This document shows positions 16,901 to 63,836 of a stretch of DNA of 64,000 nucleotides, one piece after another (position 1 is the first letter of the stretch; each line of letters starts with the position of its first letter). A program made the position numbers and the translations under genes. This DNA comes from Eledone cirrhosa. Lineage: Eukaryota. The stretch covers positions 3,658,001-3,722,000 of the forward strand of contig OZ024741.1 of assembly GCA_964016885.1 (NCBI GenBank). Reading direction: 5' to 3'. The notes under the pieces were generated by a model. That model made no database searches, was not told where the DNA came from, and saw only the letters and a program-made list of their open reading frames with translations.

Positions 16901-17580
16901 ATGATGATGATGATGATGATTTCTAATGAAAGACACTACCTATGTCATTAAACCTTTCATTACCATATTTCTAATGAAAGACACAGTCTATGTCATTAAC
17001 CCTTCCATTACTGTATTTCAAATGAAAGACATTCCATGTCATTAACCCTTTCATTTCAATATTTCTAATAAAAGACACTGTCTATGTCCTTAACCCTTTC
17101 ATTACCATATTTCTAATGAAAGACACTGTCTATGTCATTAACCCTTTAATTACTATATTTCTAATAAAAGACACTGTCTATGTCATTAACTCTTTCATTA
17201 CCATATTTCTAATGAAAGACACTGTCTATGTCCTTAACCCTTTCATTACCATATTTCTAATGAAAGACACTACCTATGTCATTAACCCTTTCAATACCAT
17301 ATTTCTAATGAAAGACACTACCTATGTCATTAAACCTTTCATTACCATATTCCTAATAAAAGACACTGTCTGTGTCATTAACCCTTTCATTACCATATTT
17401 CTAATGAAAGACACTGTCTATGTCCTTAACCCTTTCATTACCATATTTCTAATGAAAGACACTACCTATGTCATTAACCCTTTCAATACCATATTTCTAA
17501 TGAAAGACACTACCTATGTCATTAACCCTTTCATTACAATATTTCTAATAAAAGACACTGTCTATGTCATTAACCCTTTC

Positions 17581-23995: not shown

Positions 23996-24883
23996 ATATT
24001 TCTAATAAAAGACACTGTCTATGTCATTAAACCTTTCATTACCATATTTCTAATGAAAGACACTACATATGTCATTAACCCTTTCATTACCATATTTCTA
24101 ATGAAAGACACTACCTATGTCATTAAACCTTTCATTACCATATTTCTAATAAAAGACACTGTCTATGTCATTAACCCTTTCATTACCATATTTCTAATGA
24201 AAGACACTGTCTACGTCATTAACCCTTTCAATACCATATTTCTAATGAAAGACACTACCTACGTCATTAAACCTTTCATTACCATATTTCTAATAAAAGA
24301 CACTGTCTATGTCATTAACCCTTTCATTACTATATTTCTAATGATAGACACTGTCTATGTCCTTAACCCTTTCATTATCATATTTCTAATGTAAGACACT
24401 ACCTATGTCATTAACCCTTTCAATACCATATTTCTAATGAAAGACACAGTCTATGTCATTAACCCTTTCATTACCATAGTACTAATAAAAGACACTGTCT
24501 ATGTCATTAACCCTTTCATTACCATATTTCTAATGAAAGACACTACCTATGTCATTAACCCTTTCATTACCATAGTACTAATAAAAGACACTGTCTATGT
24601 CATTAACCCTTTCATTACCATATTTCTAATGAAAGACACTGTCTATGTCATTAACCCTTTCATTACCATATTTCTAATGAAAGACACTACCTATGTCATT
24701 AACCCTTTCAATACCATATTTCTAATGAAAGACATTACCTATGTCATTAAACCTTTCATTACCATATTTCTAATGAAAGACACTGCCTATGTCATTAACC
24801 CTTTCATTACCATATTTCTAATAAAAGACACTGTCTATGTCATTAACCCTTTCATTACCATATTTCTAATGAAAGACACTGTC

Positions 24884-29074: not shown

Positions 29075-32000
29075 GTCTATGTCATTAACCCTTTCATTAC
29101 TATATTTCTAATGAAAGACACTACCTATGTCATTAACCCTTTCAATACCATATTTCTAATGAAAGACATTACCTATGTCATTAAACCTTTCATTACCATA
29201 TTTCTAATGAAAGACATTACCTATGTCATTAACCCTTTCATTACCATATTTCTAATAAAAGACACTGTCTATGTCATTAACCCTTTCATTTCCATATCGT
29301 GCAGGTGTCACGACAAAAAAACACACAGTCCAACCGTAATGTGGCCGTGTAGGCAACACGGTAAAAACCTCCCAGTCCCACACTGTAAATGTGGTTGGTG
29401 TTAGGAAGGGCATCCAGCTGTAGAAAACCCGCCAGACAGTCCTATGCGAGCAAGACAACCACTCTTGCCTCAAGTGGGAAAACTCCCGTCCAAACCCATG
29501 CAAGCGTGGAACATGGACGTTAAACGATGATGATGATGATGATGATGATGATTTCTAATGAAAGACACTACCTATGTCATTAACCCTTTCATTACCATAT
29601 TTCTAATGAAAGACACTGTCTATGTCATTAACCCTTTCATTACCATATTTCTAATGAAAGACACTGTCTATGTCCTTAACCCCTTCATTATCATATTTCT
29701 AATGTAAGACACTACCTATGTCATTAATCCTTTCAATACCATATTTCTAATGAAAGACACAGTCTATGTCATTAACCCTTTCATTACCATATTTCTTATG
29801 AACGACACTACCTATGTCATTAACCCTTTCAATACCATATTTCTATTGAAAGACATTACCTATGTCATTAAACCTTTCATTACCATATTTCTAATGAAAG
29901 ACACTGCCTATGTCATTAACCCTTTCATTACCATATTTCTAATAAAAGACACTGTCTATGTCATTAACCCTTTCATTACCATATTTCTAATGAAAGACAC
30001 TGTCTATGTCATTAACCCTTTCATTACCATATTTCTAATGAAAGACACTGCCTATGTCATTAACCCTTTCATTACCATATTTCTAATAAAAGACACTGTC
30101 TATGTCATTAACCCTTTCATTTCCATATCGTGTAGGTGTCACGACAAAAAAACACACAGTCCACGCTGTAATGTGGCCGTGTAGGCAACACGCTAAAACC
30201 CTCCCAGTCCCACACTGTAAATGTGGTACGTGTTAGGAAGGGCATCCAGCTGTAGAAAACCCGCCAGACAGTCCTATGCGAGCAAGACAACCACTCTTGC
30301 CTTAAGTGGGAAAACTCCCGTTCAAACCCATGCAAGCGTGGAACATGGACATTAAACGATGATGATGATGATGATGATGATTTCTAATGAAAGACACTAC
30401 CTATGTCATTAAACCTTTCATTACCATATTTCTAATGAAAGACACTGTCTATGTCCTTAACCCTTTCATTACCATATTTCTAATGAAAGACACTACCTAT
30501 GTCATTAACCCTTTCAATACCATATTTCTAATGAAAGACACTACCTATGTCATTAAACCTTTCATTACCATATTTCTAATGAAAGACACTACCTATGTCA
30601 TTAACCCTTTCATTACCATATTTCTAATGAAAGACACTACCTATGTCATTAAACCTTTCATTACCATATTTCTAATAAAAGACACTGTCTATGTCATTAA
30701 CCCTTTCATTACCATATTTTTAATGAAAGACACTGTCTATGTCATTAACCCTTTCATTACCATATTTCTAATGAAAGACACTACCTATGTCATTAACCCT
30801 TTCAATACCATATTTCTAATGAAAGACACTACCTATGTCATTAAACCTTTCATTACCATATTTCTAATAAAAGACACTGTCTATGTCATTAACCCTTTCA
30901 TTACCATATTTCTAATGAAAGACACTACCTGTGTCATTAAACCTTTCATTACCATATTTCTAATAAAAGACACTGTCTATGTCATTAACCCTTTCAATAC
31001 CATATTTCTAATGAAAGACACTACCTACGTCATTAAACCTTTCATTACCATATTTCTAATAAAAGACACTGTCTATGTCATTAACCCTTTCATTACTATA
31101 TTTCTAATGAAAGACACTGTCTATGTCCTTAACCCTTTCATTATCATGTCATTAACCCTTTCATTACCATATTACTAATGAAAGACACTGTCTATGTCAT
31201 TAACCCTTTCATACCCATATTTCTAATAAAAGACACTGTCTATGTCATTAACCCTTTCATTACCATATTTCTAATGAAAGACACTACCTATGTCATTAAC
31301 CCTTTCAATACCATATTTCTAATGAAAGACATTACCTATGTCATTAAACCTTTCATTACCATATTTCTAATGAAAGACACTGCCTATGTCATTAACCTTT
31401 TCATTACCATATTTCTAATAAAAGACACTGTCTATGTCATTAACCCTTTCATTTCCATATCGTGTAGGTGTCACGACAAAAAAACACACAGTCCACGCTG
31501 TAATGTGGCCGTGTAGGCAACACGGTAAAAACCTCCCAGTCCCACACTGTAAATGTGGTTGGTGTTAGGAAGGGCATCCAGCTGTAGAAAACCCGCCAAA
31601 CAGTCCTATGCGAGCAAGACAACCACTCTTGCCTCAAGTGGGAAAACTCCCGTCCAAACCCATGCAAGCGTGGAACATGGACGTTAAACAATGATGATGA
31701 TGATGATGATGATTTCTAATAAAAGACACTACCTATGTCATTAAACCTTTCAATACCATATTTCTAATGAAAGACACAGTCTATGTCATTAACCCTTTCA
31801 TTACCATATTTCTTATGAACGACACTACCTATGTCATTAACCCTTTCAATACCATATTTCTATTGAAAGACATTACCTATGTCATTAAACCTTTCATTAC
31901 CATATTTCTAATGAAAGACACTGCCTATGTCATTAACCCTTTCATTACCATATTTCTAATAAAAGACACTGTCTATGTCATTAACCCTTTCATTACCATA

Positions 32001-38101: not shown

Positions 38102-38308
38102 TTGCTTGATTAACACTGAATAAAATGGCCATAAGCCATCCAGCTGTGAGACGTGCAGGTAATGTCTCAGAATTGTTGGCACAGACCATATCCATTAAAT
38201 TCTTGACAGCAAGAGGTGTAAATTTCATAGAATGCAGCAGTAACAATATAGGTTTCCAGAACTGAACAAGGCTGTCTGGCAACCAAAGACCATTCTGTGA
38301 CTGAAGTT
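38102..38308 (-). CDS. LAS1L: LAS1L coding exon: (E)LQSQNGLWLPDSLVQFWKPILLLLHSMKFTPLAVKNLMDMVCANNSETLPARLTAGWLMAILFSVNQA
   Basis: TTTTTCAG acceptor and A|GTATGT donor; 207 nt; phase 1-1. QFWKPILLLLHSMKFT resembles LAS1L QFWQPLLRGLHSQNFT (recalled). Confidence 0.9.
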
Positions 38309-42752: not shown

Positions 42753-44747
42753 ACAGATATAAAGGTATTCTGTACCTGACAGGTATAAAGGTATTCTGTA
42801 CCTGACAGATGTAAACGTATTCTGTACCTGACAGATGTAAACGTATTCTGTACCTGACAGGTATAAAGGTATTATGTACCTGACAGATATAAAGGTATTC
42901 TGTACCTGACAGGTATAAAGGTATTCTGTACCTGACAGGTATAAAGGTATTCTGTACCTGACAGGTATAAAGGTATTCTGTTCCTGACAGGTATAAAGGT
43001 ATTCTGTACCTGACAGATGTAAAGGTATTCTGTACCTGACAGATATAAAGGTATTCTGTTCCTGACAGGTATAAAGGTATTCTGTACCTGACAGATATAA
43101 AGGTATTCTGTACCTGACAGATATAAAGGTATTCTGTTCCTGACAGGTATAAAGGTATTCTGTACCTGACAGATGTAAAGGTATTCTGTACCTGACAGAT
43201 ATAAAAGTATTCTGTACCTGACAGGTATAAAGGTATTCTGTACCTGACAGATATAAAGGTATTCTGTACCTGACAGGTATAAAGGTATTCTGTACCTGAC
43301 AGATATAAAGGTATTCTGTACCTGACAGATATAAAGGTATTCTGTACCTGACAGATATAAACATATTCTGTACCTGACAGATATAAAGGTATTCTGTTCC
43401 TGACAGGTATAAAGGTATGCTGTACCTGACAGATGTAAAGGTATGCTGTACCTGACAGATGTAAAGGTATTCTGTACCTGACAGGTATAAAGGTATTCTG
43501 TCCCTGACAGATATAAAGGTATTCTGTACCTGACAGGTATAAAGGTATGCTGTACCTGACAGATGTAAAGGTATTCTGTACCTGACAGATGTAAAGGTAT
43601 TCTGTACCTGACAGGTATAAAGGTATTCTGTACCTGACAGGTATAAAGGTATTCTGTCCCTGACAGATGTAAAGGTATTCTGTACCTGACAGATGTAAAG
43701 GTATTCTGTACCTGACAGGTATAAAGGTATTCTGTACCCGACAGATATAAAGGTATTCTGTACCTGACAGGTATAAAGGTATGCTGTACCTGACAGATGT
43801 AAAGGTATTCTGTACCTGACAGATGTAAAGGTATTCTGTACCTGACAGGTATAAAGGTATTCTGTACCTGACAGATATAAAGGTATTCTGTATCTGACAG
43901 GTATAAAGGTATTCTGTACCTGACAGATGTAAAGGTATTCTGTACCTGACAGATATAAAGGTATTCTGTACCTGACAGACGTAAAGGTATTCTGTACCTG
44001 ACAGACGTAAAGGTATTCTGTACCTGACAGGTATAAAGGTATGCTGTACCTGACAGATGTAAAGGTATTCTGTACCTGACAGACGTAAAGGTATTCTGTA
44101 CCTGACAGGTATAAAGGTATTCTGTACCTGACAGATGTAAAGGTATTCTGTACCTGACAGGTATAAAGGTATTCTGTACCTGACAGATATAAAGGTATTC
44201 TGTACCTGACAGGTATAAAGGTATGCTGTACCTGACAGATGTAAAGGTATTCTGTACCTGACAGATGTAAAGGTATTCTGTACCTGACAGGTATAAAGGT
44301 ATTCTGTACCTGACAGATATAAAGGTATTCTGTATCTGACAGGTATAAAGGTATTCTGTACTTGACAGATGTAAAGGTATGCTGTACCTGACAGATGTAA
44401 AGGTATTCTGTACCTGACAGATGTAAAGGTATTCTGTACCTGACAGGTATAAAGGTATTCTGTACCTGACAGATGTAAAGGTATTCTGTACCTGACAGGT
44501 GTAAAGGTATTCTGTACAGTGTGGGACATATAAAGGTATTCTGTACCTGACAGATGTAAAGGTATTCTGTACCTGACAGATGTAAAGGTATTCTGTACCT
44601 GACAGGTATAAAGGTATTCTGTACCTGACAGAGGTAAAGGTATTCTGTACCTGACATGTATAAAGGTATTCTGTACCTGACAGATATTATTCTGTACCTG
44701 ACAGATGTAAAGGTATTCTGTACCTGACAGATATAAAGGTATTCTGT
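42753..44747. repeat. 26-bp minisatellite, left part, about 76 units
   Basis: Unit AAAGGTATTCTGTACCTGACAGATAT; stop-free on the minus strand, hence the 679- and 637-aa artefact ORFs. Confidence 0.97.
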
Positions 44748-45105
44748 TCATCATCATCATCATCATCATCAACGTTTAACGTCCGTGTTCCACGCTTGCA
44801 TGGGTTTGGACGGGGGTAGTCCCACTTGAGGCAAGAGTGATTGTCTTGCTCGCATAGGACTGTCTGGCAGGTTTTCTACAGTTGGATGCCCTTCCTAACA
44901 CCAACCACATTTACAGTGTGGGTCTGGGAGGTTTTTACCGTGTTGCCTACACGGCCACATTACAGCGTGGACTGTGTGTTTTTTTGTCGTGACACCTACA
45001 CGATCTCGTTTGTTTCGGCCTGGATGGCGCGGCACCAACATAACTTTACATGGAACGGGGTGGTGTGGATGGGGTGGGGGTGGTGGCGGGACGGGGTGTA
45101 GTTTG

Positions 45106-48093
45106 TTAGAGATGCCTACTGGCAAGGCGGGTCTTCTCTGTTACTGAGTACCGCCAAAGGTCACGGTCCAGTGACATTGTCTTGGAGAGGTGTAAGTGTG
45201 TGAGGTCTGAGTTTATCAGCTCATCCCATGTTTTTCTAGGTCTGCCTATTCCGTGGCTACCGTCTATCTTTATTGCCCTGCACTTTGTAATACAGCTATC
45301 GACTTTCATGCGCATCACGTGTCCATACGAACGCAGCCTTCTCTCGAGTAAACAACATCTGATCCCTCTTATCTCTAATTTTTTCCTTAGTTCGTTTATG
45401 CTTTGCCGTTCACGTATATTACTGTTACACATCCAGCGGAGCATGCAAGCTTCGTTCCTCTCTAGTCTGCATATATCCTCTGCACACAATGCCCAGGTCT
45501 CACTACCATGCAACATTGCTGTTCGTATGCAGGCATCGTACAACCTGCCTTTCATTTTTAGGGAGAACCCTTTAGCAGCTAATAGTGGTATAAGCTCTCT
45601 GAACTTTTTCCAACCAGTTCTGACTCTAGCTACAGTACTTTCAGAGCACCCTCCCCCACTGCTGATTTTATCGCCCAGGTAACGGAAGCTGTCCACTATT
45701 TCTATAGAACCCTCTGCGCAATTGAAAGAGCTAGTATTTTGTGGGCACTTGCTGCTACTTATTGCACCAGAACACCGGCCACATGTAAAGTCTATGTTCT
45801 TAGTTAGCTTACCTGTGATCCCACTACATCTTTTATGCACCCATACTTTGCATTTAGGACATAAGATGGAGTTTCTACCTACGCCTTTCCTACATACCGA
45901 GCACGACCATTTCCCAGAAGGGACCGCCGCCTTGTTTTCTTTCCTACAAACTAGAACTTTGGTCTTAGCCAGGTTAATTTTAAGTCCTTTTGACTCTAGG
46001 CCGTGCTTCCATGTTTGGAATTTCTTCTCTAGCTCGGCCATTGATTCCGCTATGAGTGTCAGGTCGTCTGCGTATAGGAGTTCCCATGGGCAGCCTGTCT
46101 TGAACTCCTCTGTTATAGCCTGAAGGGCAATAATAAATAGTAGGGGGCTGAGAACAGAGCCCTGATGGACGCCAACTTTTACGCTAAACTCTTCACTATA
46201 TTCGTTGTTAATTCTAACCTTGCTGACTGTTTCTTTATACATGGCTTGTATAGCCCTCACAAGCCATTCGTCAACGCCTAGTTTTCTAAGAGCCCACCAG
46301 ATAATGGAGCGGGGGACTCTGTCGAAGGCTTTCTCCAGGTCGACAAAAGCTAAGTAGAGGGGTTTACCTTTAGCTAGGTACTTCTCCTGTAGTTGTCGTA
46401 CTATGAAAAGAGCGTCTGTGGTGCTTTTGCCTGACACAAACCCGAACTGCATTTCATCTAGATCAATTCTCTCTCTGATTAGTTGCGCTATTACTTTTTC
46501 CGTGACCTTCATGACCTGGTCGATTAATTTAATGCCTCTATAGTTACTCCTATCTAGGGCGTCTCCTTTACCCTTATAACAGTTAACGATGATGCTGCTA
46601 TGCCAGTCCTTCGGAACAACCCCATTCTGTACGACTTGGTTAACTATGCGGGTGACCATGGTGTGTCCCACCGTGCCAGATGCCTTCAGCATCTCAGCAA
46701 CTATTTCCGAAGGCCCAGCCGCCTTACCAGTCTTCATATCCTTGATTGCCTTACTTATTATACTCCCCTCGACTAACACTGCTGGTCCCTCTATCGGGTC
46801 GATATGGGGGAGACTGTCTTTCTCCCATTTATTCTCCTCATTTAGTAGCCTTTCATAGTGACACTTCCAAGCTACCTTCTTATCAGTGTCGGTGATGGCA
46901 AGTATGCCATCATCGTTAAGTACACACTTCTCCCCGACAATATCACGGTTTTCCTTGACGCATTGCCTGGCAATCCTGAACACCTCACGTTTTTGGTCAT
47001 CGCGTTGTAGAACATGCTTGAACTTTCTTTCCTCAGCTTCCCTTCTTGCTAAGTACACTTCTCTCCTAGCTTCCCTCCTGGCCACTTGATAGTCTACTCT
47101 ACTTCCCCCATCCCGCCATACTTTCCAAGCCTGCTTTTTGGCCTTAATTGACCCCTCCACCCTATTGTTCCACCACCATGTTACTCTCCTCCTGCCTACA
47201 GGCCTGCTCCAGCCACAGACCTCGTCTGTCGCCAACAGCAGGTTTGCTTTCAGAAATTTCCACTGTCCCTCTATATTGTCCGATTCTAGATGCTCTTCCT
47301 TACTGTCGAAAGCATCAAGTAATATGCTTTGAAATTTATTTCTGGCTGTGGGGTCCTTTAGTTTCCATATTTTCCTCCTGAGGATAGTCCTCTTCTGCTG
47401 TCGGGTACGTCTCGTCCTGACTATGAGGTCGCTAATTATCAGTCTATGTTGGGAGGTGCATTCTTCATGGGGGAGGGATTTAGTGTTTACAACAGACACT
47501 CTGTCACGTCTTCTGGTAAGGATATAATCTACCTGGCTTGTGTGTTCCCCGGATCTATAGGTAATCAGGTGATTGTCACGTTTTTTGAAGTTAGTGTTAC
47601 AGATAGTTAGGTTATTTGCATCACAGTATTCCAGGATTCTGGAGCCTTCCTCATTTCTAGTACCAAACCCATAGCCTCCATGGATTTCGTCGTAGCCGTC
47701 ACAATGTTGTCCAACGTGACCATTTAGGTCGCCTGCAATAATTATATAGTCACTGTCAGATATTTGGGAGGTAGTTAGCAACAGTGTCTCATAGAATCTG
47801 TCTTTTATAGTGCCGGGCAGTCCGGATTGGGGTGCGTACGCAGATATTACTGTCACCGTAGTTCTATTGAGGACAAGTCTTATTTTAATTATTCTGTCGT
47901 TCACTCTATTTACGTCTATTATCTTATCTGCCCACTTTTCTGCTACCATGATTCCTACTCCACCCAGCCCATCGTCGTTTCCCACCCAGAAAAGCTTATA
48001 ACATCGTTTTTTACCCTCAATGAATCTAGCAGACCCACCCCTCCACCTGGTCTCTTGAATACAACAAACATCGACCTCCTTACGTTCAAGCAT
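45106..48093 (-). CDS. RTE ORF: APE endonuclease, reverse transcriptase and PHD-type finger (995 aa; true start upstream)
   Basis: CCIQETRW, SAYAPQ, AGDLNGHVG, QVDYIL, FVDLEKAFDRV, QGSVLSPLLF, YADD, FRYLG. The frame stays open upstream through NFRVGTINVGTLKGR to about 48210, where a 1-nt shift in a C-rich tract separates it from ORF 48135..48386. Confidence 0.95.
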   Translation of the reverse strand: MLERKEVDVCCIQETRWRGGSARFIEGKKRCYKLFWVGNDDGLGGVGIMVAEKWADKIIDVNRVNDRIIKIRLVLNRTTVTVISAYAPQSGLPGTIKDRFYETLLLTTSQISDSDYIIIAGDLNGHVGQHCDGYDEIHGGYGFGTRNEEGSRILEYCDANNLTICNTNFKKRDNHLITYRSGEHTSQVDYILTRRRDRVSVVNTKSLPHEECTSQHRLIISDLIVRTRRTRQQKRTILRRKIWKLKDPTARNKFQSILLDAFDSKEEHLESDNIEGQWKFLKANLLLATDEVCGWSRPVGRRRVTWWWNNRVEGSIKAKKQAWKVWRDGGSRVDYQVARREARREVYLARREAEERKFKHVLQRDDQKREVFRIARQCVKENRDIVGEKCVLNDDGILAITDTDKKVAWKCHYERLLNEENKWEKDSLPHIDPIEGPAVLVEGSIISKAIKDMKTGKAAGPSEIVAEMLKASGTVGHTMVTRIVNQVVQNGVVPKDWHSSIIVNCYKGKGDALDRSNYRGIKLIDQVMKVTEKVIAQLIRERIDLDEMQFGFVSGKSTTDALFIVRQLQEKYLAKGKPLYLAFVDLEKAFDRVPRSIIWWALRKLGVDEWLVRAIQAMYKETVSKVRINNEYSEEFSVKVGVHQGSVLSPLLFIIALQAITEEFKTGCPWELLYADDLTLIAESMAELEKKFQTWKHGLESKGLKINLAKTKVLVCRKENKAAVPSGKWSCSVCRKGVGRNSILCPKCKVWVHKRCSGITGKLTKNIDFTCGRCSGAISSSKCPQNTSSFNCAEGSIEIVDSFRYLGDKISSGGGCSESTVARVRTGWKKFRELIPLLAAKGFSLKMKGRLYDACIRTAMLHGSETWALCAEDICRLERNEACMLRWMCNSNIRERQSINELRKKLEIRGIRCCLLERRLRSYGHVMRMKVDSCITKCRAIKIDGSHGIGRPRKTWDELINSDLTHLHLSKTMSLDRDLWRYSVTEKTRLASRHL

Positions 48094-48596
48094 TTCTACA
48101 ACCTCGTTAGCGCGACCCTTTAGGGTGCCTACATTTATGGTACCAACTCTGAAGTTTTGGGTTGTGTTTGGAGGGTGGGGGTGGTGGGGGGGGCGGGAGG
48201 AGATAGGGTTATGTTAGCCATCCGCGGACGAAACAAAGAGGAGTGCTCGCATTCTCGTCCACGAGGTGAATTTGACTTTAACTTTGGCATTTTCGCTCTG
48301 GGCGTCCAGATTTTTCTCCCCCTTCCACTCTCCAGGATTCCGCAGTCCGTCCGTCCATCCATCCATCCATCATATATCGAAGGCAACCGGGCAAGCGATA
48401 GTATAGGCCTCTGGCTTATGATTTGGTCCGCGTAATAATAATAATAATGGTGATGCGTGGGGGTGGGGGGGGCTCTGGCTTATAATAATGGTGGTGATGC
48501 GGGGGGGGGGGGGGGGGGGGGGGCTCTGGTTATGATTGGTCCACGTATTAAGTATGGTGGCGTGTGGGGGCGGGAAGGAGGGGTGTGGGGTAGCTA

Positions 48597-51500
48597 GCTG
48601 GAAGGTTATGAATGTTTAACAAGCGATTTAACAAAAAGCAAAACTGCAAGATTTGTTCTGTTCAATACGACAAAAACACCGTATTTAAACCTTAAATAGA
48701 TAACAAAAAATACAGATTTCGGATTTTGCGAGATTGGATGTTTGTTTGGACTATGTACGAAATTGAGCGTGGAATGGAGAGAATAATTTGTACTTTACGG
48801 TTTACATGAGTACATCATAGAGATAATTGAAGCAGCGGTGGATTGGCGAAAGTGAATAAACATGAAGGAGAACTTATCTTATATATATATATGTGTGTGT
48901 GTGTAGCTAAGAGAGAGATAGAGGGGAAGAAAGAGAGGGGGGGGGAAGGGGGAGAGATATTGTGGCTGACCGCAGCCCCTCGTGGAGTAGCAAGGAGGGT
49001 GAAGGGGTGGAGCGGATTTTTGACTTTCAAGTAGCATACTATATATATTTAAAGTAATTTATAAGTAGAATGGGAAGGATTTTGTTTTTTGTTTGAGAAT
49101 ACGATAGAATTAAGGAATTGGACGAATACGATAGATTTAAGCTAGGAAGGTTATGAATGTTTAACAAGCGATTTAACAAAAAGCAAAACTGCAAGATTTG
49201 TTCTGTTCAATACGACAAAAACACCGTATTTAAACCTTAAATAGATAACAAAAAATACAGATTTCGGATTTTGCGAGATTGGATGTTTGTTTGGACTATG
49301 TACGAAATTGAGCGTGGAATGGAGAGAATAATTTGTACTTTACGGTTTACATGAGTACATCATAGAGATAATTGAAGCAGCGGTGGATTGGCGAAAGTGA
49401 ATAAACATGAAGGAGAACTTATCTTATATATATATATGTGTGTGTGTGTAGCTAAGAGAGAGATAGAAGGGAAGAAAGAGAGGGGGGGAAGGGGGAGAGA
49501 TATTGTGGCTGACCGCAGCCCCTCGTGGAGTAGCAAGGAGGGTGATGGGGTGGAGCGGATTTTTGACTTTCAAGTAGCATACTATATATATTTAAAGTAA
49601 TTTATAAGTAGAATGGGAAGGATTTTGTTTTTTGTTTGAGAATACGATAGAATTAAGGAATTGGACGAATACGATAGAATTAAGCTAGGAAGGTTATGAA
49701 TGTTTAACAAGCGATTTAACAAAAAGCAAAACTGCAAGATTTGTTCTGTTCAATACGACAAAAACACCGTATTTAAACCTTAAATAGATAACAAAAAATA
49801 CAGATTTCGGATTTTGCGAGATTGGATGTTTGTTTGGACTATGTACGAAATTGAGCGTGGAATGGAGAGAATAATTTGTACTTTACGGTTTACATGAGTA
49901 CATCATAGAGATAATTGAAGCAGCGGTGGATTGGCGAAAGTGAATAAACATGAAGGAGAACTTATCTTATATATATATATATGTGTGTGTGTGTAGCTAA
50001 GAGAGAGATAGAGGGGAAGAAAGAGAGGGGGGGGAGGGGGGGAGATATTGTGGCTGACCGCAGCCCCTCGTGGAGTAGCAAGGAGGGTGAAGGGGTGGAG
50101 CGGATTTTTGACTTTCAAGTAGCATACTATATATATTTAAAGTAATTTATAAGTAGAATGGGAAGGATTTTGTTTTTTGTTTGAGAATACGATAGAATTA
50201 AGGAATTGGACGAATACGATAGATTTAAGCTAGGAAGGTTATGAATGTTTAACAAGCGATTTAACAAAAAGCAAAACTGCAAGATTTGTTCTGTTCAATA
50301 CGACAAAAACACCGTATTTAAACCTTAAATAGATAACAAAAAATACAGATTTCGGATTTTGCGAGATTGGATGTTTGTTTGGACTATGTACGAAATTGAG
50401 CGTGGAATGGAGAGAATAATTTGTACTTTACGGTTTACATGAGTACATCATAGAGATAATTGAAGCAGCGGTGGATTGGCGAAAGTGAATAAACATGAAG
50501 GAGAACTTATCTTATATATATATATGTGTGTGTGTGTAGCTAAGAGAGAGATAGAGGGGAAGAAAGAGAGGGGGGGGGGGGGAGAGATATTGTGGCTGAC
50601 CGCAGCCCCTCGTGGAGTAGCAAGGAGGGTGAAGGGGTGGAGCGGATTTTTGACTTTCAAGTAGCATACTATATATATTTAAAGTAATTTATAAGTAGAA
50701 TGGGAAGGATTTTGTTTTTTGTTTGAGAATACGATAGAATTAAGGAATTGGACGAATACGATAGATTTAAGCTAGGAAGGTTATGAATGTTTAACAAGCG
50801 ATTTAACAAAAAGCAAAACTGCAAGATTTGTTCTGTTCAATACGACAAAAACACCGTATTTAAACCTTAAATAGATAACAAAAAATACAGATTTCGGATT
50901 TTGCGAGATTGGATGTTTGTTTGGACTATGTACGAAATTGAGCGTGGAATGGAGAGAATAATTTGTACTTTACGGTTTACATGAGTACATCATAGAGATA
51001 ATTGAAGCAGCGGTGGATTGGCGAAAGTGAATAAACATGAAGGAGAACTTATCTTATATATATATGTGTGTGTGTGTGTAGCTAAGAGAGAGATAGAGGG
51101 GAAGAAAGAGAGGGGGGGGGAAGGGGGAGAGATATTGTGGCTGACCGCAGCCCCTCGTGGAGTAGCAAGGAGGGTGAAGGGGTGGAGCGGATTTTTGACT
51201 TTCAAGTAGCATACTATATATATTTAAAGTAATTTATAAGTAGAATGGGAAGGATTTTGTTTTTTGTTTGAGAATACGATAGAATTAAGGAATTGGACGA
51301 ATACGATAGATTTAAGCTAGGAAGGTTATGAATGTTTAACAAGCGATTTAACAAAAAGCAAAACTGCAAGATTTGTTCTGTTCAATACGACAAAAACACC
51401 GTATTTAAACCTTAAATAGATAACAAAAAATACAGATTTCGGATTTTGCGAGATTGGATGTTTGTTTGGACTATGTACGAAATTGAGCGTGGAATGGAGA

Positions 51501-54500
51501 GAATAATTTGTACTTTACGGTTTACATGAGTACATCATAGAGATAATTGAAGCAGCGGTGGATTGGCGAAAGTGAATAAACATGAAGGAGAACTTATCTT
51601 ATATATATATATGTGTGTGTGTGTAGCTAAGAGAGAGATAGAAGGGAAGAAAGAGAGGGGGGGAAGGGGGAGAGATATTGTGGCTGACCGCAGCCCCTCG
51701 TGGAGTAGCAAGGAGGGTGATGGGGTGGAGCGGATTTTTGACTTTCAAGTAGCATACTATATATATTTAAAGTAATTTATAAGTAGAATGGGAAGGATTT
51801 TGTTTTTTGTTTGAGAATACGATAGAATTAAGGAATTGGACGAATACGATAGAATTAAGCTAGGAAGGTTATGAATGTTTAACAAGCGATTTAACAAAAA
51901 GCAAAACTGCAAGATTTGTTCTGTTCAATACGACAAAAACACCGTATTTAAACCTTAAATAGATAACAAAAAATACAGATTTCGGATTTTGCGAGATTGG
52001 ATGTTTGTTTGGACTATGTACGAAATTGAGCGTGGAATGGAGAGAATAATTTGTACTTTACGGTTTACATGAGTACATCATAGAGATAATTGAAGCAGCG
52101 GTGGATTGGCGAAAGTGAATAAACATGAAGGAGAACTTATCTTATATATATATATATGTGTGTGTGTGTAGCTAAGAGAGAGATAGAGGGGAAGAAAGAG
52201 AGGGGGGGGGGAGGGGGGGAGATATTGTGGCTGACCGCAGCCCCTCGTGGAGTAGCAAGGAGGGTGAAGGGGTGGAGCGGATTTTTGACTTTCAAGTAGC
52301 ATACTATATATATTTAAAGTAATTTATAAGTAGAATGGGAAGGATTTTGTTTTTTGTTTGAGAATACGATAGAATTAAGGAATTGGACGAATACGATAGA
52401 TTTAAGCTAGGAAGGTTATGAATGTTTAACAAGCGATTTAACAAAAAGCAAAACTGCAAGATTTGTTCTGTTCAATACGACAAAAACACCGTATTTAAAC
52501 CTTAAATAGATAACAAAAAATACAGATTTCGGATTTTGCGAGATTGGATGTTTGTTTGGACTATGTACGAAATTGAGCGTGGAATGGAGAGAATAATTTG
52601 TACTTTACGGTTTACATGAGTACATCATAGAGATAATTGAAGCAGCGGTGGATTGGCGAAAGTGAATAAACATGAAGGAGAACTTATCTTATATATATAT
52701 ATGTGTGTGTGTGTAGCTAAGAGAGAGATAGAGGGGAAGAAAGAGAGGGGGGGGGGAGAGATATTGTGGCTGACCGCAGCCCCTCGTGGAGTAGCAAGGA
52801 GGGTGAAGGGGTGGAGCGGATTTTTGACTTTCAAGTAGCATACTATATATATTTAAAGTAATTTATAAGTAGAATGGGAAGGATTTTGTTTTTTGTTTGA
52901 GAATACGATAGAATTAAGGAATTGGACGAATACGATAGATTTAAGCTAGGAAGGTTATGAATGTTTAACAAGCGATTTAACAAAAAGCAAAACTGCAAGA
53001 TTTGTTCTGTTCAATACGACAAAAACACCGTATTTAAACCTTAAATAGATAACAAAAAATACAGATTTCGGATTTTGCGAGATTGGATGTTTGTTTGGAC
53101 TATGTACGAAATTGAGCGTGGAATGGAGAGAATAATTTGTACTTTACGGTTTACATGAGTACATCATAGAGATAATTGAAGCAGCGGTGGATTGGCGAAA
53201 GTGAATAAACATGAAGGAGAACTTATCTTATATATATATGTGTGTGTGTGTGTAGCTAAGAGAGAGATAGAGGGGAAGAAAGAGAGGGGGGGGGGAAGGG
53301 GGAGAGATATTGTGGCTGACCGCAGCCCCTCGTGGAGTAGCAAGGAGGGTGAAGGGGTGGAGCGGATTTTTGACTTTCAAGTAGCATACTATATATATTT
53401 AAAGTAATTTATAAGTAGAATGGGAAGGATTTTGTTTTTTGTTTGAGAATACGATAGAATTAAGGAATTGGACGAATACGATAGAATTAAGCTAGGAAGG
53501 TTATGAATGTTTAACAAGCGATTTAACAAAAAGCAAAACTGCAAGATTTGTTCTGTTCAATACGACAAAAACACCGTATTTAAACCTTAAATAGATAACA
53601 AAAAATACAGATTTCGGATTTTGCGAGATTGGATGTTTGTTTGGACTATGTACGAAATTGAGCGTGGAATGGAGAGAATAATTTGTACTTTACGGTTTAC
53701 ATGAGTACATCATAGAGATAATTGAAGCAGCGGTGGATTGGCGAAAGTGAATAAACATGAAGGAGAACTTATCTTATATATATATATGTGTGTGTGTGTA
53801 GCTAAGAGAGAGATAGAGGGGAAGAAAGAGAGGGGGGAAGGGGGAGAGATATTGTGGCTGACCGCAGCCCCTCGTGGAGTAGCAAGGAGGGTGAAGGGGT
53901 GGAGCGGATTTTTGACTTTCAAGTAGCATACTATATATATTTAAAGTAATTTATAAGTAGAATGGGAAGGATTTTGTTTTTTGTTTGAGAATACGATAGA
54001 ATTAAGGAATTGGACGAATACGATAGAATTAAGCTAGGAAGGTTATGAATGTTTAACAAGCGATTTAACAAAAAGCAAAACTGCAAGATTTGTTCTGTTC
54101 AATACGACAAAAACACCGTATTTAAACCTTAAATAGATAACAAAAAATACAGATTTCGGATTTTGCGAGATTGGATGTTTGTTTGGACTATGTACGAAAT
54201 TGAGCGTGGAATGGAGAGAATAATTTGTACTTTACGGTTTACATGAGTACATCATAGAGATAATTGAAGCAGCGGTGGATTGGCGAAAGTGAATAAACAT
54301 GAAGGAGAACTTATCTTATATATATATATGTGTGTGTGTGTAGCTAAGAGAGAGATAGAAGGGAAGAAAGAGAGGGGGGGGGGAAGGGGGAGAGATATTG
54401 TGGCTGACCGCAGCCCCTCGTGGAGTAGCAAGGAGGGTGAAGGGGTGGAGCAGATTTTTGACTTTCAAGTAGCATACTATATATATTTAAAGTAATTTAT

Positions 54501-57500
54501 AAGTAGAATGGGAAGGATTTTGTTTTTTGTTTGAGAATACGATAGAATTAAGGAATTGGACGAATACGATAGAATTAAGCTAGGAAGGTTATGAATGTTT
54601 AACAAGCGATTTAACGAAAAGCAAAACTGCAAGATTTGTTCTGTTCAATACGACAAAAACACCGTATTTAAACCTTAAATAGATAACAAAAAATACAGAT
54701 TTCGGATTTTGCGAGATTGGATGTTTGTTTGGACTATGTACGAAATTGAGCGTGGAATGGAGAGAATAATTTGTACTTTACGGTTTACATGAGTACATCA
54801 TAGAGATAATTGAAGCAGCGGTGGATTGGCGAAAGTGAATAAACATGAAGGAGAACTTATCTTATATATATATATGTGTGTGTGTGTAGCTAAGAGAGAG
54901 ATAGAGGGGAAGAAAGAGAGAGGGGGGGGGGGGAGATATTGTGGCTGACCGCAGCCCCTCGTGGAGTAGCAAGGAGGGTGAAGGGGTGGAGCAGATTTTT
55001 GACTTTCAAGTAGCATACTATATATATTTAAAGTAATTTATAAGTAGAATGGGAAGGATTTTGTTTTTTGTTTGAGAATACGATAGAATTAAGGAATTGG
55101 ACGAATACGATAGAATTAAGCTAGGAAGGTTATGAATGTTTAACAAGCGATTTAACAAAAAGCAAAACTGCAAGATTTGTTCTGTTCAATACGACAAAAA
55201 CACCGTATTTAAACCTTAAATAGATAACAAAAAATACAGATTTCGGATTTTGCGAGATTGGATGTTTGTTTGGACTATGTACGAAATTGAGCGTGGAATG
55301 GAGAGAATAATTTGTACTTTACGGTTTACTTGAGTACATCATAGAGATAATTGAAGCAGCGGTGGATTGGCGAAAGTGAATAAACATGAAGGAGAACTTA
55401 TCTTATATATATATATGTGTGTGTGTGTAGCTAAGAGAGAGATAGAGGGGAAGAAAGAGAGGGGGGGGAAGGGGGAGAGATATTGTGGCTGACCGCAGCC
55501 CCTCGTGGAGTAGCAAGGAGGGTGAAGGGGTGGAGCGGATTTTTGACTTTCAAGTAGCATACTATATATATTTAAAGTAATTTATAAGTAGAATGGGAAG
55601 GATTTTGTTTTTTGTTTGAGAATACGATAGAATTAAGGAATTGGACGAATACGATAGAATTAAGCTAGGAAGGTTATGAATGTTTAACAAGCGATTTAAC
55701 AAAAAGCAAAACTGCAAGATTTGTTCTGTTCAATACGACAAAAACACCGTATTTAAACCTTAAATAGATAACAAAAAATACAGATTTCGGATTTTGCGAG
55801 ATTGGATGTTTGTTTGGACTATGTACGAAATTGAGCGTGGAATGGAGAGAATAATTTGTACTTTACGGTTTACTTGAGTACATCATAGAGATAATTGAAG
55901 CAGCGGTGGATTGGCGAAAGTGAATAAACATGAAGGAGAACTTATCTTATATATATATATGTGTGTGTGTGTAGCTAAGAGAGAGATAGAGGGGAAGAAA
56001 GAGAGGGGGGGGAAGGGGGAGAGATATTGTGGCTGACCGCAGCCCCTCGTGGAGTAGCAAGGAGGGTGAAGGGGTGGAGCGGATTTTTGACTTTCAAGTA
56101 GCATACTATATATATTTAAAGTAATTTATAAGTAGAATGGGAAGGATTTTGTTTTTTGTTTGAGAATACGATAGAATTAAGGAATTGGACGAATACGATA
56201 GATTTAAGCTAGGAAGGTTATGAATGTTTAACAAGCGATTTAACAAAAAGCAAAACTGCAAGATTTGTTCTGTTCAATACGACAAAAACACCGTATTTAA
56301 ACCTTAAATAGATAACAAAAAATACAGATTTCGGATTTTGCGAGATTGGATGTTTGTTTGGACTATGTACGAAATTGAGCGTGGAATGGAGAGAATAATT
56401 TGTACTTTACGGTTTACATGAGTACATCATAGAGATAATTGAAGCAGCGGTGGATTGGCGAAAGTGAATAAACATGAAGGAGAACTTATCTTATATATAT
56501 ATATGTGTGTGTGTGTAGCTAAGAGAGAGATAGAGGGGAAGAAAGAGAGGGGGGGGAAGGGGGAGAGATATTGTGGCTGACCGCAGCCCCTCGTGGAGTA
56601 GCAAGGAGGGTGAAGGGGTGGAGCGGATTTTTGACTTTCAAGTAGCATACTATATATATTTAAAGTAATTTATAAGTAGAATGGGAAGGATTTTGTTTTT
56701 TGTTTGAGAATACGATAGAATTAAGGAATTGGACGAATACGATAGATTTAAGCTAGGAAGGTTATGAATGTTTAACAAGCGATTTAACAAAAAGCAAAAC
56801 TGCATGATTTGTTCTGTTCAATACGACAAAAACACCGTATTTAAACCTTAAATAGATAACAAAAAATACAGATTTCGGATTTTGCGAGATTGGATGTTTG
56901 TTTGGACTATGTACGAAATTGAGCGTGGAATGGAGAGAATAATTTGTACTTTACGGTTTACATGAGTACATCATAGAGATAATTGAAGCAGCGGTGGATT
57001 GGCGAAAGTGAATAAACATGAAGGAGAACTTATCTTATATATATATATGTGTGTGTGTGTAGCTAAGAGAGAGATAGAGGGGAAGAAAGAGAGGGGGGGG
57101 AAGGGGGAGAGATATTGTGGCTGACCGCAGCCCCTCGTGGAGTAGCAAGGAGGGTGAAGGGGTGGAGCGGATTTTTGACTTTCAAGTAGCATACTATATA
57201 TATTTAAAGTAATTTATAAGTAGAATGGGAAGGATTTTGTTTTTTGTTTGAGAATACGATAGAATTAAGGAATTGGACGAATACGATAGAATTAAGCTAG
57301 GAAGGTTATGAATGTTTAACAAGCGATTTAACAAAAAGCAAAACTGCAAGATTTGTTCTGTTCAATACGACAAAAACACCGTATTTAAACCTTAAATAGA
57401 TAACAAAAAATACAGATTTCGGATTTTGCGAGATTGGATGTTTGTTTGGACTATGTACGAAATTGAGCGTGGAATGGAGAGAATAATTTGTACTTTACGG

Positions 57501-60500
57501 TTTACATGAGTACATCATAGAGATAATTGAAGCAGCGGTGGATTGGCGAAAGTGAATAAACATGAAGGAGAACTTATCTTATATATATATATGTGTGTGT
57601 GTGTAGCTAAGAGAGAGATAGAGGGGAAGAAAGAGAGGGGGGAAGGGGGAGAGATATTGTGGCTGACCGCAGCCCCTCGTGGAGTAGCAAGGAGGGTGAA
57701 GGGGTGGAGCGGATTTTTGACTTTCAAGTAGCATACTATATATATTTAAAGTAATTTATAAGTAGAATGGGAAGGATTTTGTTTTTTGTTTGAGAATACG
57801 ATAGAATTAAGGAATTGGACGAATACGATAGAATTAAGCTAGGAAGGTTATGAATGTTTAACAAGCGATTTAACAAAAAGCAAAACTGCAAGATTTGTTC
57901 TGTTCAATACGACAAAAACACCGTATTTAAACCTTAAATAGATAACAAAAAATACAGATTTCGGATTTTGCGAGATTGGATGTTTGTTTGGACTATGTAC
58001 GAAATTGAGCGTGGAATGGAGAGAATAATTTGTACTTTACGGTTTACATGAGTACATCATAGAGATAATTGAAGCAGCGGTGGATTGGCGAAAGTGAATA
58101 AACATGAAGGAGAACTTATCTTATATATATATATGTGTGTGTGTGTAGCTAAGAGAGAGATAGAAGGGAAGAAAGAGAGGGGGGGGGGAAGGGGGAGAGA
58201 TATTGTGGCTGACCGCAGCCCCTCGTGGAGTAGCAAGGAGGGTGAAGGGGTGGAGCAGATTTTTGACTTTCAAGTAGCATACTATATATATTTAAAGTAA
58301 TTTATAAGTAGAATGGGAAGGATTTTGTTTTTTGTTTGAGAATACGATAGAATTAAGGAATTGGACGAATACGATAGAATTAAGCTAGGAAGGTTATGAA
58401 TGTTTAACAAGCGATTTAACAAAAAGCAAAACTGCAAGATTTGTTCTGTTCAATACGACAAAAACACCGTATTTAAACCTTAAATAGATAACAAAAAATA
58501 CAGATTTCGGATTTTGCGAGATTGGATGTTTGTTTGGACTATGTACGAAATTGAGCGTGGAATGGAGAGAATAATTTGTACTTTACGGTTTACTTGAGTA
58601 CATCATAGAGATAATTGAAGCAGCGGTGGATTGGCGAAAGTGAATAAACATGAAGGAGAACTTATCTTATATATATATATGTGTGTGTGTGTAGCTAAGA
58701 GAGAGATAGAGGGGAAGAAAGAGAGGGGGGGGAAGGGGGAGAGATATTGTGGCTGACCGCAGCCCCTCGTGGAGTAGCAAGGAGGGTGAAGGGGGTGGAG
58801 CGGATTTTTGACTTTCAAGTAGCATACTAGATATATCTTTAAAGTAATTTATAAGTAGAATGGGAAGATTTTGTTTTTTGTTTGAGAATACGATAGAATT
58901 AAGGAATTGGACGAATACGATAGAATTAAGCTAGGAAGGTATGAATGTTTAACCAAGCGATTTAACAAAAAGCAAAACTGCAAGATTTGTTCTGTTCAAT
59001 ACGACAAAAACACCGTATTTAAACCTTAAATAGATAACAAAAAATACAGATTTCGGATTTTGCGAGATTGGATGTTTGTTTGGACTATGTACGAAATTGA
59101 GCGTGGAATGGAGAGAATAATTTGTACTTTACGGTTTACTTGAGTACATCATAGAGATAATTGAAGCAGCGGTGGATTGGCGAAAGTGAATAAACATGAA
59201 GGAGAACTTATCTTATATATATATATGTGTGTGTGTGTAGCTAAGAGAGATAGAGGGGAAGAAAGAGAGGGGGGGGGGGGGGGGGGGAGAGAGATATTGT
59301 GGCTGACCGCAGCCCCTCGTGGAGTAGCAAGGAGGGTGAAGGGGTGGAGCGGATTTTTGACTTTCAAGTAGCATACTATATATATTTAAAGTAATTTATA
59401 AGTAGAATGGGAAGGATTTTGTTTTTTGTTTGAGAATACGATAGAATTAAGGAATTGGACGAATACGATAGAATTAAGCTAGGAAGGTTATGAATGTTTA
59501 ACAAGCGATTTAACAAAAAGCAAAACTGCAAGATTTGTTCTGTTCAATACGACAAAAACACCGTATTTAAACCTTAAATAGATAACAAAAAATAAAGATT
59601 TCGGATTTTGCGAGATTGGATGTTTGTTTGGACTATGTACGAAATTGAGCGTGGAATGGAGAGAATAATTTGTACTTTACGGTTTACATGAGTACATCAT
59701 AGAGATAATTGAAGCAGCGGTGGATTGGCGAAAGTGAATAAACATGAAGGAGAACTTATCTTATATATATATATGTGTGTGTGTGTAGCTAAGAGAGAGA
59801 TAGAGGGGAAGAAAGAGAGGGGGGGGAGGGGGAGAGATATTGTGGCTGACCGCAGCCCCTCGTGGAGTAGCAAGGAGGGTGAAGGGGTGGAGCGGATTTT
59901 TGACTTTCAAGTAGCATACTATATATATTTAAAGTAATTTATAAGTAGAATGGGAAGGATTTTGTTTTTTGTTTGAGAATACGATAGAATTAAGGAATTG
60001 GACGAATACGATAGATTTAAGCTAGGAAGGTTATGAATGTTTAACAAGCGATTTAACAAAAGGCAAAACTGCAAGATTTGTTCTGTTCAATACGACAAAA
60101 ACACCGTATTTAAACCTTAAATAGATAACAAAAAATACAGATTTCGGATTTTGCGAGATTGGATGTTTGTTTGGACTATGTACGAAATTGAGCGTGGAAT
60201 GGAGAGAATAATTTGTACTTTACGGTTTACATGAGTACATCATAGAGATAATTGAAGCAGCGGTGGATTGGCGAAAGTGAATAAACATGAAGGAGAACTT
60301 ATCTTATATATATATATGTGTGTGTAGCTAAGAGAGAGATAGAGGGGAAGAAAGAGAGGGGGGGGAAGGGGGAGAGATATTGTGGCTGACCGCAGCCCCT
60401 CGTGGAGTAGCAAGGAGGGTGAAGGGGTGGAGCGGATTTTTGACTTTCAAGTAGCATACTATATATATTTAAAGTAATTTATAAGTAGAATGGGAAGGAT

Positions 60501-62020
60501 TTTGTTTTTTGTTTGAGAATACGATAGAATTAAGGAATTGGACGAATACGATAGATTTAAGCTAGGAAGGTTATGAATGTTTAACAAGCGATTTAACAAA
60601 AAGCAAAACTGCAAGATTTGTTCTGTTCAATACGACAAAAACACCGTATTTAAACCTTAAATAGATAACAAAAAATACAGATTTCGGATTTTGCGAGATT
60701 GGATGTTTGTTTGGACTATGTACGAAATTGAGCGTGGAATGGAGAGAATAATTTGTACTTTACGGTTTACATGAGTACATCATAGAGATAATTGAAGCAG
60801 CGGTGGATTGGCGAAAGTGAATAAACATGAAGGAGAACTTATCTTATATATATATATGTGTGTGTGTGTGTAGCTAAGAGAGAGATAGAGGGGAAGAAAG
60901 AGAGGGGGGGGGAGGGGGAGAGATATTGTGGCTGACCGCAGCCCCTCGTGGAGTAGCAAGGAGGGTGAAGGGGTGGAGCGGATTTTTGACTTTCAAGTAG
61001 CATACTATATATATTTAAAGTAATTTATAAGTAGAATGGGAAGGATTTTGTTTTTTGTTTGAGAATACGATAGAATTAAGGAATTGGACGAATACGATAG
61101 AATTAAGCTAGGAAGGTTATGAATGTTTAACAAGCGATTTAACAAAAAGCAAAACTGCAAGATTTGTTCTGTTCAATACGACAAAAACACCGTATTTAAA
61201 CCTTAAATAGATAACAAAAAATACAGATTTCGGATTTTGCGAGATTGGATGTTTGTTTGGACTATGTACGAAATTGAGCGTGGAATGGAGAGAATAATTT
61301 GTACTTTACGGTTTACATGAGTACATCATAGAGATAATTGAAGCAGCGGTGGATTGGCGAAAGTGAATAAACATGAAGGAGAACTTATCTTATATATATA
61401 TATGTGTGTGTGTGTAGCTAAGAGAGAGATAGAGGGGAAGAAAGAGGGGGGGGGGGAGGGGGAGAGATATTGTGGCTGACCGCAGCCCCTCGTGGAGTAG
61501 CAAGGAGGGTGAAGGGGTGGAGCGGATTTTTGACTTTCAAGTAGCATACTATATATATTTAAAGTAATTTATAAGTAGAATGGGAAGGATTTTGTTTTTT
61601 GTTTGAGAATACGATAGAATTAAGGAATTGGACGAATACGATAGAATTAAGCTAGGAAGGTTATGAATGTTTAACAAGCGATTTAACAAAAAGCAAAACT
61701 GCAAGATTTGTTCTGTTCAATACGACAAAAACACCGTATTTAAACCTTAAATAGATAACAAAAAATACAGATTTCGGATTTTGCGAGATTGGATGTTTGT
61801 TTGGACTATGTACGAAATTGAGCGTGGAATGGAGAGAATAATTTGTACTTTACGGTTTACATGAGTACATCATAGAGATAATTGAAGCAGCGGTGGATTG
61901 GCGAAAGTGAATAAACATGAAGGAGAACTTATCTTATATATATATATGTGTGTGTGTGTGTAGCTAAGAGAGAGATAGAGGGGAAGAAAGAGAGGGGGGG
62001 GAAGGGGGAGAGATATTGTG
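48597..62020. repeat. Tandem array of about 544-bp units: 24 full copies and one partial copy of about 370 bp, near-identical
   Basis: GCTAGGAAGGTTATGAATG recurs at 49141, 49684, 50229, 50771 ... 61107, 61651. Differences are mostly G-run and TA/TG-run lengths plus a few shared SNPs. Confidence 0.98.
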
Positions 62021-62634
62021 TCCCTGAAAGGTATTCTGTCCCTGACAGATGTAAAGGTATTCTGTACCTGACAGATATAAAGGTATTCTGTCCCTGGCAG
62101 ATGTAAAGGTATTCTGTACCTGACAGATATAAAGGTATTCTGTACCTGACAGATGTAAAGGTATTCTGTACCTGACAGATGTAAAGGTATTCTGTACCTG
62201 ACAGGTATAAAGGTATTCTGTACCTGACAGGTGTAAAGGTATTCTGTACCTGACAGGTATAAAGGTATTCTGTACCTGACAGGTATAAAGATATTCTGTA
62301 CCTGACAGGTGTAAAGGTATTCTGTACAGTGTGGGACATATAAAGGTATTCTGTACCTGATAGGTATAAAGGTATTCTGTACCTGACAGATGTAAAGGTA
62401 TTCTGTCCCTGACAGATATAAAGGTATTCTGTACCTGACAGATGTAAAGATATTCTGTACCTGGCAGATGTAAAGGTATTCTGTCCCTGACAGATGTAAA
62501 GGTATTCTGTCCCTGACAGATATAAAGGTATTCTGTACCTGACAGGTGTAAAGGTATTCTGTACCTGACAGGTGTAAAGGTATTCTGTACAGTGTGGGAC
62601 ATATAAAGGTATTCTGTACAGTGTAGGACAGATA
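62021..62634. repeat. 26-bp minisatellite, right part, about 23 units
   Basis: Same unit and same rare variant (TCTGTACAGTGTGGGACATATAAAGG) as at about 44511. Confidence 0.97.
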
Positions 62635-62759: not shown

Positions 62760-63836
62760 CCCTTTCGTTACCAAACGGCCCAAAGACGCCCGAAAAAAAT
62801 GTTGGTTCATGTGACCAAGCCACCCAAAACCGCCCGTACTCACACATTCATATTTAAATGAGAATATCAGAGCAAATCTCGTTAGTATATTCGTGAAAAC
62901 ACGTGATTATACTACGTAAACAATTGAGCTACAGTTTCGGACAAATATCGACGTTATTTTAATTCTGTGAATTTTGGGAGATTTTTTTTCAAAATTTGTT
63001 CCTGTTGTATTTTGAAAATTTTTAATTCTGACAAAAAATGGATACCAATTTCATTCAGTCAAGCAGCGAGTCAGAATTCGAAGGATTTTCTACTGAAGAC
63101 CTTGAAAAATCTAACTCTATAACTGAAAAAAAAAAAGCACGTGGTATTTGATAATGAATCCGATGTTTCATTTTCTGAGAGTGAAAGCAGTGAATCCGAG
63201 AGCTCCGATGACAGCGATAAAGAAAATGAATTGGCACCTGAATGGAGTAAAAATTTAAAAACTGTTTCTTTCAGTGATTTTTATGAAGAAACTGGACCAA
63301 GTCACAGTCTATCCCAGGAGAGCAAAGCTTTAGACTATTTCCTTTTACTTTTTCCTATGAGCTTGTTTGAAATTATTACGGTGGAAACAAACCGTTACGC
63401 TGAAAGTAAACAAAGCGAAAAAAAGGATAGTTTGTGGTTTCCCACAAGCTTAATTGAAATTAGGGCTTATTTTGCCATAAATATTATTATGGGCATTAGA
63501 AAGCTACCCAGAATTACAAATTACTGGAGTACCGATGAACCCTTTGGAGACGAATATGTCTCAAGTATAATGACGAGGACACGGTTTTTAAAATTGACGC
63601 AGTATTTACATGTAAGAGACGCGAGCTGTACACCAGTAAGTGGAGAACCAAACTATGATCCCTTATTTAAAATAAGACCCCTCATTGATTGTGTTCAAAA
63701 CACATACAAAACAGTTTACAAACCAGGGAGATATTTATCTATCAATGAGGGTATGGTGTGCTATAAAGGCTGAGTGCGTTTTCCACAATATATGCCAGGA
63801 AAGCCCACAAAATGGGGGATGAAAGTTTGGAAGATT
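62760..63836 (+). mobile_element. piggyBac transposon, left end and 5' half
   Basis: TTAA (62756-62759) followed by CCCTTTCGTTACC; downstream PGBD4-like transposase. Confidence 0.88.
63038..63836 (+). pseudogene. piggyBac (PGBD4-like) transposase pseudogene
   Basis: Acidic N-terminus, ETNRYA, YWSTD, MTRTRF, DPLFKIRPL, LSINEGM (first catalytic D reads N), KG* stop, QYMPGKPTKWGMKVW. Frameshift at the A-run near 63127; interrupted by an RTE. Confidence 0.9.

Follow-up and report, generated by a model that had tools for sequence, protein, structure and literature searches.

The 5′ untranslated region (UTR) carried by long interspersed nuclear element-1 (LINE-1, L1) in mouse and rat consists of monomers and a tether, with rat units of ~650 bp (PMC5381506). 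Mouse L1 5′ ends cluster at start sites and one mouse locus carries 50 units (PMC6454616); more than 10 units are found in 7 of 5765 mouse loci, younger subfamilies having more units (PMC9022269). Rare very long mouse arrays have been attributed to unequal crossing-over, and the mechanism by which monomers regrow is unsettled (PMC6454616; bioRxiv 10.1101/2022.08.06.500894). Here, we describe a LINE of the octopus Eledone cirrhosa that carries an array of 24.7 near-identical 544-bp units at its 5′ end, located in a 64-kb stretch of the 3.0-Gb assembly (C2:3658001–3722000, C2 being the contig that carries it; this stretch is hereafter the window, and positions refer to it unless otherwise specified). 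On balance, and with moderate confidence, we favour the reading that the element belongs to a very young RTE-type family with an inherited 5′ array of head-to-tail 500–700-bp units, that the units are likely promoters, and that the array in the window likely grew locally after insertion.

The arrangement resembles that of mouse L1Md (A, Tf and Gf) and rat L1 in placing units in tandem 5′ of a tether that is short and unique, in its partial outermost unit and variable unit count, and further in its subfamily-specific monomers, longer arrays in younger copies and rare giant arrays, with a unit size that matches the rat. Unlike rodent L1, which has two open reading frames (ORFs) and a poly(A) tail, the octopus LINE has a single ORF and a (GAT)n tail, ruling out that it is rodent L1 itself; its units are AT-rich and its 5′ ends are unclustered. 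Its arrays are mostly shorter than those of rodents, with 79 of 90 copies ending within two units, yet at least 10 units are present in 5 of 90, to be set against the mouse frequency given above. Promoter activity is proven for rodent L1 monomers and predicted for those of the octopus. Because the LINE architecture differs from that of L1, the best reading is that the monomer-plus-tether promoter design evolved convergently in an RTE-type LINE.

Within RTE elements, RTE-2_OV (Petrosino 2022, PMC9115989) and young Octopus vulgaris RTE families (PMC13282606) have a single ORF of ~1100 aa and share with the E. cirrhosa element the endonuclease, reverse transcriptase (RT) and zinc-binding domains, a microsatellite tail and recent activity, their reported 5′ UTR being ~600 nt. 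No 5′ monomer array is described for either in the accessible parts of these papers, the comparison being one of descriptions, and the words “tandem” and “monomer” have no occurrence in the available text of PMC9115989. The literature searched, outside which lay Repbase, Dfam and subscription journals, yielded no account of monomers arrayed at the 5′ end of an RTE element. Some RTE elements carry 5′ self-cleaving ribozymes, either hepatitis delta virus (HDV)-like (PMC5786205) or, in Perere-3, variants of twister (PMC8501958). These are elements of the same kind with the same problem of 5′-end definition; unlike them, the octopus unit has no Rfam match, gives 0 sense matches in 20 sequences to self-made HDV-like and hammerhead descriptors (which miss unknown ribozymes), folds unremarkably as RNA (z-scores 0.26 and 0.04) and has no fixed 5′ end, so that a retrozyme or ribozyme-headed LINE is not supported. 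In the Dictyostelium element TRE5-A, the A-module is tandemly repeated. This 5′ module of a non-long-terminal-repeat element shows promoter activity for RNA polymerase II (PMC5633606), but TRE5-A differs from the octopus LINE in clade, host and its targeting of transfer RNA genes.

The element, its array and its family

The LINE body lies on the minus strand at 44748–48599 and is joined without a break to the array at 48600–62020, and the window contains no N. The first-pass annotation had described a minus-strand LINE joined to 24.7 near-identical 544-bp units, and this is borne out: the array comprises 24 full monomers (48600–61654; 539–548 bp, 37% GC, observed/expected CpG ratio 1.1) and a 5′-most partial monomer of 365 bp (61655–62020) that ends at CACAATATC, with a mean pairwise substitution divergence of 0.36% when simple tracts are masked. 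From its 3′ end, the body contains a (GAT)n tail (44748–44771), a 3′ UTR (44772–45105), a single long frame of 1035 aa from stop to stop that encodes an APE endonuclease, RT and a PHD finger (45106–48213), and a segment (48214–48599) holding an out-of-frame N-terminal coding part (to ~48360) and a unique tether-like 5′ UTR. The tether contains two TATGATT(T)GGTCC motifs, at 48417 and 48531. The N-terminal part is put out of frame by a G-run near 48190 that exceeds those of four sister copies by 2 bases, which may be a mutation or an assembly error. By its sequence, the element is RTE-type on two features, namely a single ORF with APE endonuclease and RT but no ORF1 (about 1084 aa in relatives), and a tail made of the short tandem repeat (GAT)n, not poly(A), in the window copy and relatives alike. 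A PDB search returned distant L1 and R2 chains only.

The monomer travels with this LINE. Exact matches genome-wide number 4469, 2746 and 815 for ORF 28-mers ordered from 3′ to 5′, 269 for a tether 30-mer and 993 for a monomer 30-mer. When the genome-wide search proposed in the first-pass annotation was carried out, the monomer immediately adjoined a LINE body of like orientation at 35 of the 36 best BLAST loci, and body or tether adjoined the monomer in sense at all 53 loci fetched on C1 (54 are present in its first 405 Mb). Loci without an adjoining body or tether are thus 1 of 36 and 0 of 53, respectively, which argues against the monomer being free-standing satellite DNA. The only orphan seen, L015 (C1432:90261–91964), consists of ~3 monomers adjoining the 3′ end of an older RTE, with a full copy 6 kb away.

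The mean divergence among 72 alignable bodies is 1.05%, nearest neighbours in the youngest clade differ by 0.03–0.16%, and an ORF of 1069–1089 aa is kept in 41 of 72 relatives; judged from these sequences, the family is a very young and abundant LINE. Across the family, monomers measure about 500–770 bp, those of different subfamilies being 72–99% identical to the window monomer, and the tandem layout is present in subfamilies whose monomers are 26% diverged. An older sister LINE in the window (24883–29076, minus strand, 91% identical to the body) had been credited with a single-copy 5′ UTR to which the monomer aligns. The first quoted match stands (33/40, E 1.6e-5), whereas the rest of the sister 5′ end aligns weakly with the window monomer (score 62, shuffles up to 67) and significantly with the older monomer of L166 (score 88, shuffles up to 77). 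The single-copy status did not hold up: the sister 5′ end aligns to the L166 monomer and stops inside it, at 29076 within a diverged first monomer, arguing that the sister is probably merely truncated. In its 3′ UTR, the sister also carries a 112-bp tandem duplication (24993–25225) that is common to L028.

Nine types of unit-to-unit junction are each common to 2–11 insertions, and placing them on an ORF tree of 42 copies requires 11 changes (minimum 9; shuffles mean 26, lowest 21). The 5′ end of L140 is formed by an inverted piece of 612 bp, which takes up the sequence again 8 bp beyond the break and extends across a unit junction. An inverted 5′ end of this kind is the pattern expected of twin priming, arguing for tandem units in the RNA. 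Within a copy, units are homogenised, unit 1 and unit 2 differing at 24 of 7611 sites over 33 loci, and monomers are divergent between subfamilies. By these comparisons of sequence, tandem units are inherited via RNA across the lineage and are a family trait. The first of two alternatives offered in the first-pass annotation, a monomer-type RTE subfamily, is therefore upheld in its structure and, with units inherited lineage-wide, goes beyond what had been put forward; unsupported are the single-copy sister UTR and, as described below, a start site at CACAATATC.

Array lengths and the origin of giant arrays

Array lengths were taken from a census of 100 listed tether matches of the 269 (62 from C1 and, from C2, the first 38), with the window copy included and L015 left out; the exact-match pattern used favours young copies. 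Ten copies stop before the monomer, 48 end in unit 1 and 31 in unit 2, 6 have 2–5 units and 5 have 10–31 units; the monomer is thus reached by 90 copies, and the second unit or beyond is entered by 42. The five long arrays measure 10.2, 17.3, 23.7, 24.7 and 31.5 units, the 17.3-unit array being a mixture of 247-bp and 620–657-bp units. Of 20 copies with neither exact pattern, 9 end at most 370 bp from the ORF pattern and most others carry older monomers. L166, from an old subfamily with 74% identity to the window monomer, extends into its second unit.

A second process is needed to explain this distribution, because five arrays exceed 5.5 kb compared with 0.03 expected from the short copies. 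For the window copy, the sequence indicates that the array likely reached 24.7 units by local duplication after insertion, since its junction is private to this locus, all 23 exact matches in the assembly falling inside the window. In addition, three substitutions in the array recur in scattered units (3, 4 and 10 of them), and 2 singletons are present compared with 8.9 expected had 24 units aged with the body (P 0.007). In the L027 array, singletons number 0 against 7.1 expected. Local macrosatellite growth, the second alternative of the first-pass annotation, thus seems true for the window copy on the strength of its private junction, shared variants and few singletons, and a monomer subfamily and local growth seem to be stages of one process, not rivals.

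Expansions of other kinds are seen as well. At the tether–monomer boundary of L042, which has one private ORF change, a 27-bp piece occurs ~35 times, compared with 2–3 times in sister copies; L055 contains a 247-bp deletion derivative of the monomer, arranged in three higher-order blocks of (247)×4–6 plus one full unit. Such locus-specific remodelling favours local growth. In the window at 11914–35017, a 48-bp minisatellite contains 11 copies of a 250-bp RTE 3′ fragment in opposite orientation; fragment and array were multiplied together, in higher-order blocks of ~2 kb. Tandem expansion at the DNA level is thus something to which the locus is prone.

An unlikely though by no means negligible alternative keeps the monomers as promoters and has the giant arrays long at birth. 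The LINE would then generate promoter macrosatellites itself, during insertion or directly thereafter, either by copying 12–16-kb RNA leaders or by RT recopying the monomer repeatedly, through template jumping or from a monomer RNA circle. Several observations speak for this and count against local growth. The longest arrays belong to the youngest copies, with a median private divergence of 0.03% versus 0.13% (rank test P 0.04; Spearman P 0.20, not significant). L127 (31.5 units, C2 of the assembly from 70.775 Mb) and L140 (23.7 units, C2 near 146.76 Mb), both in the youngest clade, show zero substitutions among their units, as fits arrays long at birth; one private base of L127 is present in all 31 units, and the inversion of L140 lies beyond unit 24. 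Moreover, the private body changes may partly stem from unsampled donors. On the other hand, at the rough truncation rate of the body, 0.4–1.0 per kb (0.44–0.97; a rate that pools subfamilies, which tempers the point), at most 0.5% of complementary DNAs would cross 12 kb, yet 3 of 90 copies do, and it is the array's own rate that yields the expectation of 0.03 copies over 5.5 kb given above. Recopying of a single template does not yield variants common to scattered units, the junction of the window copy is found at no other locus, and no ribozyme was found that would make an RNA circle.

5′ ends and the candidate promoter role

Because 90 of 100 census copies reach the array, transcripts must begin 5′ of the tether, and because TA-type target sequence lies within 12 bases at 55 of 67 5′ ends, they rarely carry host flank. 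Across the first 1.1 kb of the array, 5′ ends become more frequent, from 0.85 to 3.2 per kb, and exceed the rough body rate, which fits most RNAs beginning within the first two units. Monomers have an observed/expected CpG ratio of 0.9–1.5 at 35–40% GC, and the ORF has a ratio of 0.61. By analogy with rodent L1, the units are likely internal promoters that can be stacked.

The 5′ ends in the monomer are uneven, not focused. Among 122 ends (L073, L033 and L140 were left out because of a gap or inversion), no span of 5–31 bp shows significant clustering when the TA tract, which resembles the target, is left out (P 0.10–0.53), and a chi-square test over 20-bp bins gives P 0.007, with excesses near positions 101–120, 281–300 and 461–540. 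The proposal that CACAATATC marks a start site or preferred end is rejected, with 3 ends at positions 350–370 compared with 4.0 expected. A peak of ends at position 280 was also discarded as a start, being an internal TA tract that matches TA targets. What we take to be a TATA box at monomer positions 279–286, together with a presumed initiator-like site at 254, is a lead only, as it was picked post hoc and its spacing is not conserved; four ends fall at positions 254–257. The absence of clustered ends weighs against a promoter role, as do the spacing of these motifs (15 of 18 monomers have 17–24 nt and two have 7 nt, the motif missing in the young L127 clade), the AT-richness of the window monomer, unlike the GC-rich 5′ UTRs of mammalian L1, and the fact that 15 end positions, some outside the census, were set by eye.

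It is improbable that the tandem units have no promoter role and arose by neutral duplication in an expansion-prone genome, with transcription from the tether or by host read-through. Unclustered ends would suit such an origin, as would the fast evolution and variable length of the monomer, the presumed CCAAT-type motifs of the tether and a window full of expanded minisatellites. Yet transcription from the tether is at odds with the 90 copies that extend 5′ of it, read-through with the rarity of upstream host flank, and neutrality with a tandem layout that has outlasted 26% monomer divergence and many truncating generations. Finally, short-read contigs of runs X1 and X2, which inform on presence but not on absence, did not show the window junction. 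An assembly artefact as the source of the unit count is nevertheless very improbable here, as microsatellite length varies among the units and their variants are patterned, the array has no gap, unit counts vary among loci, and a related unit-to-unit junction is bridged by contigs of both runs at depths of 1978 and 1445, arguing that the tandem units themselves are no product of assembly.

If the units are promoters and arrays grow locally, as we favour, RNA starts would be dispersed within the array, and each round of retrotransposition would lose upstream sequence yet keep working promoter units. With two units present, unequal exchange or replication slippage would regrow and homogenise the array, and regrowth, sometimes to 10–30 units, would resupply long donors.

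Insertion site, neighbouring elements and implications

The element splits a 26-bp minisatellite into a left part (42753–44747) and a right part (62027–62590). That the same rare variant lies on both sides, as the first-pass annotation had noticed, is confirmed at 44513 on the left and at 62323 and 62586 on the right. The 13-mer AAAGGTATTCTGT flanks the element, forming the last 13 bases of the left part (44735–44747) and, past a 6-nt filler, recurring at 62027–62039 (filler and right copy together, 62021–62039); it fits a target-site duplication and is a candidate for one, yet it is indistinguishable from the register of the minisatellite. The family as a whole inserts mainly into (TA)n, so that target-site duplications are uncallable at most of its loci. 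At most fetched loci, the TA tracts on the two flanks often have complex variants in common, in many repeats, as though the target likewise expanded after insertion.

As for the host gene, a Las1 Pfam exon lies on the minus strand 2.6 kb beyond the window end (E 7.8e-7, over the cut-off), and a likely LAS1L exon downstream of the insertion, with approximate bounds 38102–38306 on the minus strand, weakly matches solved LAS1L chains (E 0.04). Host gene and LINE share a strand, and from these two exons the likely location of the element, in sense, is an intron of LAS1L.

Other mobile sequences are present in the window. An older RTE-type copy at 17579–20561 is 74% identical to the body and keeps an 888-aa open frame; an RTE-type fragment ends at its 3′ end in a pure (ATC)115 (1731–2075), an unusually long tail. 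A broken DDE_Tnp_1_7 transposase (E 1.5e-33), presumably piggyBac-like, occupies 63123–63773, and an RTE-type 3′ end breaks into it near 63837.

How LINE monomer promoters regrow after truncating rounds is open in the mouse, as far as the accessible parts of the literature tell (PMC6454616; bioRxiv 10.1101/2022.08.06.500894). The E. cirrhosa family offers hundreds of very young copies with 0–31 units, traceable junctions and a heavy tail of giant arrays, allowing unequal exchange to be tested against RT-coupled growth. Should the arrays prove to be built by the LINE itself at insertion, they would reach at least 10 units ~40 times more often than those of mouse L1 as far as the latter are documented in the accessible text, would seed satellites and promoter batteries in introns, and would show directly how monomer promoters regenerate. 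Under the favoured reading of an inherited promoter array that grows locally, the family points to a convergent monomer-plus-tether design in a second LINE group, in another phylum, provides a first candidate promoter for young RTE families reported as expressed in the octopus brain, and presents satellites that are seen forming while still attached to their parent element.

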